Shown one piece after another: positions 7,307 through 54,317 of a stretch of DNA of 64,000 bases. This DNA is from Nemertoderma westbladi (lineage: Eukaryota; Animalia; Xenacoelomorpha): positions 1 to 64,000 of the forward strand of contig JAUCBJ010001861.1 in assembly GCA_032718475.1 (NCBI GenBank), read 5' to 3'. Made by a program: the position numbers and the translations under genes. Numbering within the stretch: position 1 is the first letter of the stretch; each line of letters opens with the position of its first letter. The notes below the pieces were generated by a model that saw nothing but the letters and a program-made list of their open reading frames with translations, had not been told where the DNA came from and did not search any database.

Positions 7307-10135
7307 AAACTTAGCTAAGTGGTTCGGAGAGGAAACTTACCAAAGTGGTTCGGAGAGAAAACTTACCTAAGTGGTTCGGAGAGGAAACTTACCTAAGTGG
7401 TTCGGAGAGGAAACTTACCTAAGTGGTTCGGAGAGGAAACTTACCTAAGTAGTTCGGAGAGGAAACTTACCTAAGTGGTTCGGAGAGGAAACTTACCTAA
7501 GTGGTTCGGAGAGGAAACTTACCTAAGTGGTTCGGAGAGGAAACTTATCTCAATGGTTCGGAGAGGAAACTTACCTAAGTGGTTCGGAGAGGAAACTTAC
7601 CTAAGTGGTTCGGAGAGGAAACTTACCTAAGTGGTTCGGAGAGGAAACTTATCTCAATGGTTCGGAGAGGAAACTTACCTAAGTGGTTTGGAGAGGAAAC
7701 TTACCTAAGTGGTTCGAAGAGGAAACTTACCAAAGTGGTTCGGAGAGGAAACTTACCATAGTGGTTCGGAGAGGAAACTTACCTAACTGGTTCGGAGAGG
7801 AAACTTACCTAAGTTGTTCGAAGAGGAAACTTACAAAAGTGGTTCGGAGAGGAAACTTACCTAAGTGGTTCGGAGAGGAAACTTACCTAAGTGGTTCGGA
7901 GAGGAAACTTACTTAAGTGGTTTTGAGAGGAAACTTACCTAAGCGGTTCGGAGAGGAAACTTACCTAAGTGGTTCGGAGAGGAAACTTACCTAAGTGGTT
8001 CGGAGAGGAAACTTACCTAAGTGGTTCGGAGAGGAAACTTATCTCAATGGTTCGGAGAGGAAACTTACCTAAGTGGTTTGGAGAGGAAACTTACCTAAGT
8101 GGTTCGAAGAGGAAACTTACCAAAGTGGTTCGGAGAGGAAACTTACCTAAGTGGTTCGGAGAGGAAACTTATCTCAATGGTTCGGAGAGGAAACTTACCT
8201 AAGTGGTTCGGAGAGGAAACTTACCTAAGTGGTTCGGAGAGGAAACTTATCTCAATGGTTCGGAGAGGAAACTTACCTAAGTGGTTTGGAGAGGAAACTT
8301 ACCTAAGTGGTTCGAAGAGGAAACTTACCAAAGTGGTTCGGAGAGGAAACTTACCATAGTGGTTCGGAGAGGAAACTTACCTAACTGGTTCGGAGAGGAA
8401 ACTTACCTAAGTGGTTCGGAGAGGAAACTTACCTAAGTGGTTCGGAGAGGAAACTTACTTAAGTGGTTTTGAGAGGAAACTTACCTAAGTGGTTCAGAGA
8501 GGAAACTTACCTAAGTGGTTCGGAGAGGAAACTTACCTAAGTGGTTCGGAGAGGTAACTTATCTCAATGGTTCGGAGAGGAAACTTACCAAAGTGGTACG
8601 GAGAAGAAACTTACCTAAGTGGTTCGGAGAGGAAACTTACTTAAGTGGTTTTGAGAGGAAACTTACCTAAGTGGTTCAGAGAGGAAACTTACCTAAGTGG
8701 TTCGGAGAGGAAACTTACCTAAGTGGTTCGGAGAGGAAACTTACTTAAGTGGTTTTGAGAGGAAACTTACCTAAGTGGTTCAGAGAGGAAACTTACCTAA
8801 GTGGTTCGGAGAGGAAACTTACCTAAGTGGTTCGGAGAGGAAACTTATCTCAATGGTTCGGAGAGGAAACTTACCAAAGTGGTACGGAGAAGAAACTTAC
8901 CTAAGTGGTTCGGAGAGGAAACTTACTTAAGTGGTTTTGAGAGGAAACTTACAAAAGTGGTTCGGAGAGGAAACTTACCTAAGTGGTTCGGAGAGGAAAC
9001 TTACCAAAGTGGTTCAGAGAGGAAACTTACCTAAGTGGTTCGGAGAGGAAACTTACCTAAGTGGTTCGGAGAGGAAACTTACCTAAGTGGTTCGGAGAGG
9101 AAACTTACCTAAGTGGTTCGGAGAGGAAACTTATCTCAATGGTTCGGAGAGGAAACTTACCAAAGTGGTACGGAGAAGAAACTTACCTAAGTGGTTCGGA
9201 GAGGAAACTTACTTAAGTGGTTTTGAGAGGAAACTTACAAAAGTGGTTCGGAGAGGAAACTTACCTAAGTGGTTCGGAGAGGAAACTTACCTAAGTGGTT
9301 CGGAGAGGAAACTTACTTAAGTGGTTTTGAGAGGAAACTTACCTAAGTGGTTCAGAGAGGAAACTTACCTAAGTGGTTCGGAGAGGAAACTTACCTAAGT
9401 GGTTCGGAGAGGAAACTTATCTCAATGGTTCGGAGAGGAAACTTACCTAAGTAGTTCGGAGAGGAAACTTACCTAAGTGGTTCGGAGAGGAAACTTACCT
9501 AAGTGGTTCGGAGAGGAAACTTACCTAAGTGGTTCGGAGAGGAAACTTACCTAAGTGGTTCGGAGAGGAAACTTACCTAAGGGGTTCGAAGAGGAAACTT
9601 ACCTAAGTGGTTCGGAGAGGAAACTTACCTAAGTGGTTCGGAGAGGAAACTTATCTCAATGGTTCGGAGAGGAAACTTACCTAAGTGGTTCGGAGAGGAA
9701 ACTTATCTCAATGGTTCGGAGAGGAAACTTACGTAAGTGGTTCGGAGAGGAAACTTACCAAAGTGGTTCGGAGAGAAAACTTACCTAAGTGGTTCGGAGA
9801 GGAAACTTACCTAAGTGGTTCGGAGAGGAAACTTACCAAAGTGGTTCGGAGAGAAAACTTACCTAAGTGGTTCGGAGAGGAAACTTACCTAAGTGGTTCG
9901 GAGAGAAAACTTACCTAAGTGGTTCGGAGAGGAAACTTACCTAAGTGGTTCGGAGAGGAAACTTACCAAAGTGGTTCGGAGAGGAAACTTACCTAAGTGG
10001 TTCGGAGAGGAAACTTACCTAAGTGGTTCGGAGAGGAAACTTACCTAAGTGGTTCGGAGAGGAAACTTACCAAGGTGGTTCGTAGAAGAAACTTACCAAA
10101 GTGGTTCGGAGAAGAAACTTACCTAAGTGGTTCGA
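7307..10135 (-). repeat. 26-bp satellite (about 108 copies) made of the PRP4K exon-end/5' splice-site junction
   Basis: Plus unit ttacctaagtggttcggagaggaaac; minus unit CGAACCACTTAG|GTAAGTttcctctc; the first copy overlaps the real donor at 10123/10122. Confidence 0.97.
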
Positions 10136-10260
10136 AGACGAGACATAAATGATTGACGTGATAGAAACTCCGCAAACATCGTAGAACATGCATCTTATCG
10201 TCTGGGTCGGCATCATTGAGTTTCTTAAGAAATTCAGCCTCTTTGATACCAGTTTTATTC
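10123..10260 (-). CDS. PRPF4B: PRP4 kinase exon ([46 protein letters not shown])
   Basis: Matches the PRP4[20 protein letters not shown]...HLCLVFEPL segment; acceptor ttttccag|, donor TTAG|GTAAGT; phase 2 to phase 2. Confidence 0.95.
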
Positions 10261-10379
10261 CTGGAAAAACGAGAGGTGACAAAAAGATAATAAAGAATAT
10301 AAATAATAATGTGTTTTAAGTTATATTCGTTGACGAGTTATTTGTAACAAAGATTACGTGACGTGAATCAGATGATAGC

Positions 10380-53234: not shown

Positions 53235-53315
53235 GTCTTCTTTCGATTATAGCTTCTTCGTCTTCAAAATCCACATCATCGTCTATCGGCTCATCCGATT
53301 CGGGAGCTCGTTGAC
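53200..53315 (-). CDS. PRPF4B: PRP4 kinase exon (GQRAPESDEPIDDDVDFEDEEAIIERRRRERKKLVAKLK)
   Basis: EDEEA.IE.RR..R..+V.K motif conserved in PRP4K; acceptor cttctccttcaag|, donor AAG|GTGAGT; phase 1 to phase 0. Confidence 0.9.
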
Positions 53316-53329
53316 CTTGAAGGAGAAGA

Positions 53330-54317
53330 ATAGGATCAACTGATAGGATCAACTGATATGATCAACTGATAGGATCAACTGATAGAATCAACTGATAGGA
53401 TCAACTGATAGGATCAACTGATAGGATCAACTGATAGGATCAACTGATAGGATCAACTGATAGGATCAACTGATAGGATCAAGTGATAGGATCAACTGAT
53501 AGGATCAACTGATAGGATCAACTGATAGGATCAACTGATAGGATCAACTTATATGATCAACTGATAGGATCAACTGATAGGATCAACTGATAGGATCAAC
53601 TGATAGGATCAACTGATAGGATCAACTGATAGGATCAACTGATAGGATCAACTGATAGGATCAACTGATAGAATCAACTGATAGGATCAACTGATAGAAT
53701 CAACTGATAGGATCAACTTATATGATCAACTGACAGGATCAACTGATAGGATCAACTGATAGAATCAACTGATAGGATCAACTGATAGGATCAACTTATA
53801 TGATCAACTGATAGGATCAACTGATAGGATCAACTGATAGGATCAACTGATAGGATCAACTGATAGGATCCACTGATAGGATCAACTGATAGGATCAACT
53901 GATAGGATCAACTGATAGGATCAACTGATAGGATCAACTAATAGGATCAACTGATAGGATCAACTTATATGATCAACTGATAGGATCAACTGATAGGATC
54001 AACTGATAGGATCAACTGATAGGATCAACTGATAGGATCAACTGATAGGATCAACTGATAGGATCAACTGATAGGATCAACTGATAGGATCAACTGATAG
54101 GATCAACTGATAGAATCAACTGATAGGATCAAATGATAGAATCAACTGATAGGATCAACTTATATGATCAACTGATAGGATCAACTGATAGGATCAACTG
54201 ATAGAATCAACTGATAGGATCAACTGATAGGATCAACTTATATGATCAACTGATAGGATCAACTGATAGGATCAACTGATAGGATCAACTGATAGGATCA
54301 ACTGATAGGATCAACTG
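53330..54317 (-). repeat. 13-bp satellite (about 76 copies) abutting the polypyrimidine tract and containing the likely branch point
   Basis: Plus unit ataggatcaactg; minus unit cagTTGATcctat; the A of the last TTGAT lies 21 nt before the exon start at 53315. Confidence 0.95.

Follow-up and report, generated by a model that had tools for sequence, protein, structure and literature searches.

The window analysed, i.e. the whole 64,000-nt stretch of contig JAUCBJ010001861.1 (assembly GCA_032718475.1) of Nemertoderma westbladi from positions 1 to 64,000, was found to contain a PRP4K gene of the PRPF4B type on the minus strand, in which the 5′ splice sites (donors) of three exons lie at the start of long tandem arrays that repeat the exon end together with the beginning of the intron. 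All counts of arrays and genes refer to this window unless stated otherwise. Eleven PRP4K exons were recognised between 58362 and 6608:

58362-58240, minus strand, PRP4K exon 1
57705-56555, minus strand, PRP4K exon 2
55080-54982, minus strand, PRP4K exon 3
54831-54557, minus strand, PRP4K exon 4
53315-53200, minus strand, PRP4K exon 5
26245-26126, minus strand, PRP4K exon 6
22452-22315, minus strand, PRP4K exon 7
19815-19659, minus strand, PRP4K exon 8
16897-16804, minus strand, PRP4K exon 9
10260-10123, minus strand, PRP4K exon 10
6762-6608, minus strand, PRP4K exon 11

The numbering starts at the first exon recognised, upstream of which the true first exon may be located, and at the other side the gene extends beyond the window start, with the exon following exon 11 falling outside the window. 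When the 11 exons were joined at their first donors, a stop-free frame of 855 codons was obtained. The best PDB match of exon 11 was found to be human PRP4K (E 2e-23), and likewise that of exon 8 (E 5e-10), and the Pfam search gave no match for exon 10 alone or for exon 2. The joints of exons 4-5, 5-6 and 10-11 were present in spliced contigs, together with the total length of exons 6-11. The large exon 2, rich in Arg, Ser and Asp, was found to contain degenerate 33- and 24-bp coding repeats (56563-56838).

The arrays were called with Tandem Repeats Finder. The introns contained seven families, with units of 13, 66 (two blocks), 84 (two blocks), 48, 50, 24 and 26 bp, in addition to a 40-bp family upstream, and 24,851 of the 49,189 intronic bases were found to be occupied by arrays. 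Three of the 11 donors coincided with the start of an array, namely those of exon 5 (66 bp), exon 8 (50 bp) and exon 10 (26 bp). The features present at these donors, followed by a degenerate copy at a fourth donor and the element inserted in the 66-bp array, were as follows:

46449..53234, minus strand, 66-bp array, proximal block, 102 full units of which 101 carry GT
39091..41292, minus strand, 66-bp array, distal block past the long terminal repeat (LTR) element, 32 full units, 32 of 32 with GT
17353..19677, minus strand, 50-bp array, 46 units, 46 of 46 with GT
7307..10138, minus strand, 26-bp array, 109 units, 97 of 109 with GT
6569..6624, minus strand, degenerate repeat of the sequence around the exon 11 donor, some 32 nt inside the intron, possibly a seed or a relic
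41293..46448, plus strand, near full-length copia-type LTR retrotransposon with Pfam RVT_2 and integrase, inserted into one 66-bp unit

The unit of each array contained an exon-identical tail of 35 nt in the 66-bp array, 19 nt in the 50-bp array and 12 nt in the 26-bp array, followed by the presence of the repeated intron start, as had been described in the original prediction for three PRP4K introns. Its figure of about 290 junction copies, most of them with GT, was reproduced as 289 units, with an intact GT in 276 (the authentic donors counted in). The authentic 9-mer from -3 to +6 was matched exactly by 229 of the 286 downstream copies, and the units were found to be 92-98% alike, which suggests that the arrays are young. 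The 66-, 50- and 26-bp arrays are exon-intron boundary minisatellites of the mirage and F7 type described below, and PRP4K is thus a real and dense additional example of an already known repeat layout.

The 66-bp unit was composed of the last 35 nt of exon 5 and 31 intron nucleotides, and the initial four units of its proximal block were found to be stop-free and in frame, with 22 residues per unit. Variant units were common to both blocks. The 50-bp unit contained the last 19 nt of exon 8 followed by the donor and a 24-nt stretch, and the 26-bp unit contained the last 12 nt of exon 10 and the donor, with many units reading TAG/GTAAGT, in form an AG/GT joint as at recursive splice sites, which follows from the copied exon ending in AG. 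Read-through past the first donor was found to meet a stop after five codons in the 50-bp array and after one codon in the 26-bp array; these stops are a consequence of the GTAAG donor motif and the phase, so that no selection is needed to account for them. Within the 24-nt stretch of the 50-bp unit, 8 nt of the unit's junction recur in inverted orientation, which was not significant (p 0.076), and the end of this array was without the 24-nt middle part, resembling a templated insertion. The copia-type element contained LTRs of 164 nt with two differing sites, flanked by a target-site duplication of 5 nt, and its coding region was present as two open frames with one stop between them near 44538.

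The choice of donor was read from runs X4 and X5, which were taken as spliced RNA, despite the record label 'DNA?', because their contigs join exons; none of the runs listed for these sequences is on record as RNA. In run X4, a contig of 1930 nt was found to contain the end of exon 5 (1901-1930), where exon 6 follows as a loose end, and exon 11 (1100-1257), before which a loose end carries exon 10 sequence past the 12 nt that the array also contains. The span in this contig was 802 nt, exactly that of exons 6-11, so that an additional unit of 50 or 26 nt would not fit. The main PRP4K mRNA was therefore found to use the first donor at both the 50-bp and the 26-bp array, a result that covers one run and the main form. 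The end of the 26-bp array had no contig in runs X4 and X5, nor had the end of the 13-bp array in run X4, and such uncovered parts did not enter the evidence; run X8 gave no matching contig. The first donor of exon 11 was used in both runs, and run X5 informs this donor only. At the 66-bp array, the 36 nt in common are longer than the 31-letter words, so that the contigs of run X4 break there. The expectation that the first copy gives the normal protein was accordingly upheld for two of the three arrays. Exon 10 in run X4 differed by one silent base within the stretch shared with the 26-bp unit (10123-10135), and this base was present in one of the 109 units. The predicted unpaired share of the first and the internal donors was 0.45/0.35, 0.27/0.27 and 0.45/0.32; as both are predicted to be similarly paired, the choice between them is likely to be positional. 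Concealment of the later donors by RNA structure was rejected as an explanation, the predicted differences being small.

The arrays are most likely neutral minisatellites spanning exon ends, tolerated through the choice of the first donor. A short duplication across a donor would have been expanded by ordinary repeat turnover and would have survived since the first donor was still used. The locus makes many large arrays, the seven intronic families and the one upstream being its products. A duplication over the exon end would keep the exon and the donor as the first unit and would have no cost at birth. The most upstream of the identical donors is then taken, as one run shows at the 50-bp and the 26-bp array, by a mechanism that would be the one known from F7 experiments. 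Occasional slips at these two arrays would run straight into a stop, and nonsense-mediated decay would remove the products. Variants, donor-damaging ones included, have spread in blocks, and the retrotransposon has landed in one array.

In two of the arrays the donor copies were found to vary as much as the other parts of the unit, which fits drift and not upkeep. In the 66-bp array, 4 of the 9 sites of the donor 9-mer were variable vs 23 of the 57 sites in the rest of the unit, and in the 26-bp array the counts were 4/9 vs 11/17, whereas the 50-bp array (0/9 vs 3/41) was too uniform to tell. The G of GT was lost in eleven 26-bp units, and G was changed to C at +3 in 16 copies of the 66-bp unit.

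Published systems of the same layout were found in the available parts of several papers. In the 37-bp variable number tandem repeat (VNTR) of intron 7 of human F7, a scanning-type process selects the donor lying furthest upstream, and 6-16, CBS, LMNB2 and PDGF are listed there as similar repeats (PMC1557585). As in PRP4K, the first F7 unit lies over the exon end, followed by identical pseudo-donors; F7, as far as the available text goes, contains 5-25 copies in one array per gene, whereas PRP4K contains three unrelated arrays with about 290 copies. The 'mirages' of lancelets, present in Adh3, troponin C, the globins BflGb6 and BflGb9, and PGBD5, were reported to leave splicing undisturbed (PMC3087553, PMC3902484), and two such arrays were present in PGBD5 (PMC3902484). 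In the available text they resemble the PRP4K arrays in repeating an exon-intron boundary in tandem along with its splice signals, in a unit of 10-160 bp, in concerted turnover, in the occurrence of more than one array per gene (PGBD5) and in the production of a normal mRNA. The same parts of these papers give 2-7 copies per array in lancelet globins and PGBD5, as against 46-134 in PRP4K, and describe acceptor-side arrays too, whereas those of PRP4K are donor-side only; the PRP4K host is a spliceosomal kinase, unlike the mirage genes named there. The 25-bp VNTR in intron 18 of human ABCA7 contains up to about 427 donor-bearing units, and retention of one unit leads to a premature stop (PMC5954066, available part). 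Every ABCA7 unit has a donor GT, as most PRP4K units have, but the ABCA7 unit starts at GT and its length effect on splicing was measured, whereas the PRP4K units include 12-35 exon bases and any such effect of theirs is hypothetical. Literature searches gave no PRP4K donor array and no genome-wide donor-overlap test in an invertebrate among the matches listed, the term PRP4K was absent from the 20 papers listed out of 114 in one of them, and donor-spanning arrays were not addressed in the available part of PMC10078293.

The remaining intronic families were found at the following positions:

53330..54317, minus strand, 13-bp array, 76 units with 67 CAG, stopping 15 nt short of the exon 5 acceptor
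10381..16727, minus strand, 24-bp array between exons 9 and 10, beginning 77 nt past the donor, no splice junction
30968..33099, no strand assigned, 48-bp array far inside the intron between exons 5 and 6, touching no PRP4K splice site
33763..38719, no strand assigned, 84-bp array, likewise far inside the intron between exons 5 and 6, two blocks (33763-34265 and 37914-38719)

The 24-, 48- and 84-bp families, which had been left out of the original prediction, are present in PRP4K introns and touch no splice site, and they serve as internal controls, the 48- and 84-bp arrays lying 7-13 kb from any PRP4K donor. The two 84-bp blocks are 3.7 kb apart with dispersed-repeat-like sequence between them and may be part of a mobile element. 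The 13-bp array was found to be entirely intronic and does not cross the exon edge, and it is therefore no boundary minisatellite, in which the first unit spans the exon-intron boundary. Between the last upstream AG and the acceptor, the only A nucleotides (apart from that of the acceptor itself) were at -21 (TTGAT) and -16, both within the last 13-bp unit, which likely holds the branch point. The earlier idea that this array repeats the likely branch point is thus retained for the position of the only plausible branch nucleotide, as judged from the sequence. A non-random placement of the 13-bp array was rejected, since it has a chance of about 5% of covering a given point in its intron and copies no exon edge. 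A start of exon 5 at the in-frame CAG within the last 13-bp unit was rejected for the main form, as run X4 joins exon 4 to exon 5 at the downstream AAG acceptor, past 67 upstream CAGs.

The 40-bp array (58704-64000) comprised 127 units or more; one end lies 342 nt upstream of the first exon recognised, and the other falls beyond the window. Three nested genes were found in PRP4K introns, namely an MFS transporter (23507-24973, minus strand, the same strand as PRP4K), a TSP1-domain protein (26400-30455, plus strand) and an EF-hand plus WD40 gene (1134-6271, plus strand), with contigs of run X5 on the WD40 frame.

Several observations weigh against the neutral explanation as the whole account. 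The main one is the abundance of the 66-bp unit in run X4, in which the unit contig had a depth of 133 and the shared 36-mer a depth of 433 vs 195 and 203 for the flanking exon contigs. This depth fits unspliced RNA or DNA carry-over over about 135 copies, for which a carry-over below 1% per copy would suffice, and it also fits use of later donors. The contigs drop rare forms, and run X4 is the one spliced run for the donors of the 50- and 26-bp arrays. According to the available text, the next one or two donors are used to some degree in 6-16 and CBS (PMC1557585), and the second or third in ABCA7 (PMC5954066). Under uniform seeding over the present non-array intron length, 0.1-0.35 of the seven intronic families would be expected to cover a donor and three did so (P 0.0002-0.003); survival alone cannot raise the overlap above background, and the donor of exon 11 contains the degenerate second copy as a fourth case.

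The alternative that survives best is a mutational process with a preference for starting duplications at 5′ splice sites, such as breaks or polymerase slips at exon ends that are repaired by template switching. The arrays would still be passengers under it, so that it would add to the neutral explanation and not replace it, and we regard it as a possibility that falls clearly short of even. The arrays at 3 of 11 donors and the degenerate copy at the fourth speak for it, as does the finding of self-copies at none of the 11 acceptors; the local alignment score of the exon 11 copy was matched by 3 of 1000 shuffles, this being one of 22 junctions tested. The inverted junction copy in the 50-bp unit and the short inverted repeats formed by the 66- and 26-bp junctions also point this way, but the former did not reach significance, and DNA hairpin energies of the array donors (-4.5 to -5.5) overlapped with those of the other eight (-1.7 to -5.1), so that hairpins could not be separated as a mark of array donors. 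The window was selected for this very pattern and the donor excess holds within it; the excess was found to depend on the assumed intron length, weakening to P 0.06 at 300 nt of seedable intron and 0.17 at 200 nt, and it is gone at about 300 nt or shorter. A donor-side filter would be expected anyway because the first copy leaves the exon intact. Recurrence in one gene does not point to PRP4K biology, because PGBD5 has two arrays and the layout is present in F7, CBS, ABCA7, globins and Adh3 too. A mild duplication bias towards donors is possible. The proposal of a tolerated mutational process was hence supported in its tolerance part by first-donor use and the published cases, whereas its seeding part has the in-window, length-dependent excess.

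The arrays could also be an autoregulatory or decoy device. In it, low or high PRP4K activity would move splicing on to later donors, giving stop-containing mRNA at the 50- and 26-bp arrays or 22-residue inserts rich in Lys, Arg and Ser at the 66-bp array, or U1 would be loaded onto the copies. Known poison elements in the autoregulation of splicing factors are deeply conserved single exons. The PRP4K arrays share with them a splicing-factor host and alternative donors that would bring stops, but they are young and drifting, with no unproductive main isoform seen. The immediate stops at two arrays (a potential only), the four in-frame units at the start of the 66-bp array, the abundance of the 66-bp unit in run X4 and the ability of the ABCA7 repeat to alter splicing with its length (PMC5954066, available part) would agree with such a device. 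The first donors were used in the main contig at both stop-giving arrays, and the unproductive form was absent from this contig, which as a contig drops rare forms. The stops follow from motif and phase alone, the donor copies are unprotected from change in two of the three arrays, and the layout is also found in genes unrelated to splicing. The 66-bp unit variant of run X4 contained an in-frame stop and an extra AAG/GTAAGT donor-like site (region 53133-53234), and it was carried by 1 of 102 proximal and 5 of 32 distal units. A regulatory role is consequently considered very unlikely, and for the earlier suggestion of decoy, U1-loading or autoregulation no positive support was found.

A narrower version would place the function in the 66-bp array as an alternative-donor ladder just upstream of the PRP4K kinase region, where repeat length and PRP4K activity together would set the PRP4K dose, and this was judged slightly more improbable still. 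The later donors would add 22-residue basic inserts or a stop, forming a satellite-built feedback loop, a part of the proposal held to be just as improbable.

That the arrays are assembly artefacts or greatly inflated is scarcely credible: very long near-perfect arrays are difficult to assemble, the 66-bp unit reached only about 13-20 times the single-copy depth in run X2 (263 vs 13-20 for the flanks, contig depth being no copy number) and the run support covers the 66-, 26- and 13-bp arrays and not the 50-bp array, but the units carry many distinct variants in blocks together with an inserted element with its target-site duplication, the 66-bp unit contig in run X1 (possibly the same source as the assembly) had a depth of 2502 vs 40 for the adjoining contig, in rough agreement with 89 vs 1.6 window copies per word, and independent DNA of sample S2 contained the 66- and 13-bp units in run X2 and the 26-bp units in run X3 as a loop of 78 nt (three units).

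PRP4K is a dense natural test case for the choice of the 5′ splice site: an essential gene whose three donor ladders, two of them out of frame and the third in frame, each hold 46-134 near-identical copies, and whose introns also contain control arrays. It is suited to testing first-donor choice outside mammals and preferential duplication at donors. If later donors were regulated after all, repeat length would be tied to the dose of a core splicing kinase.

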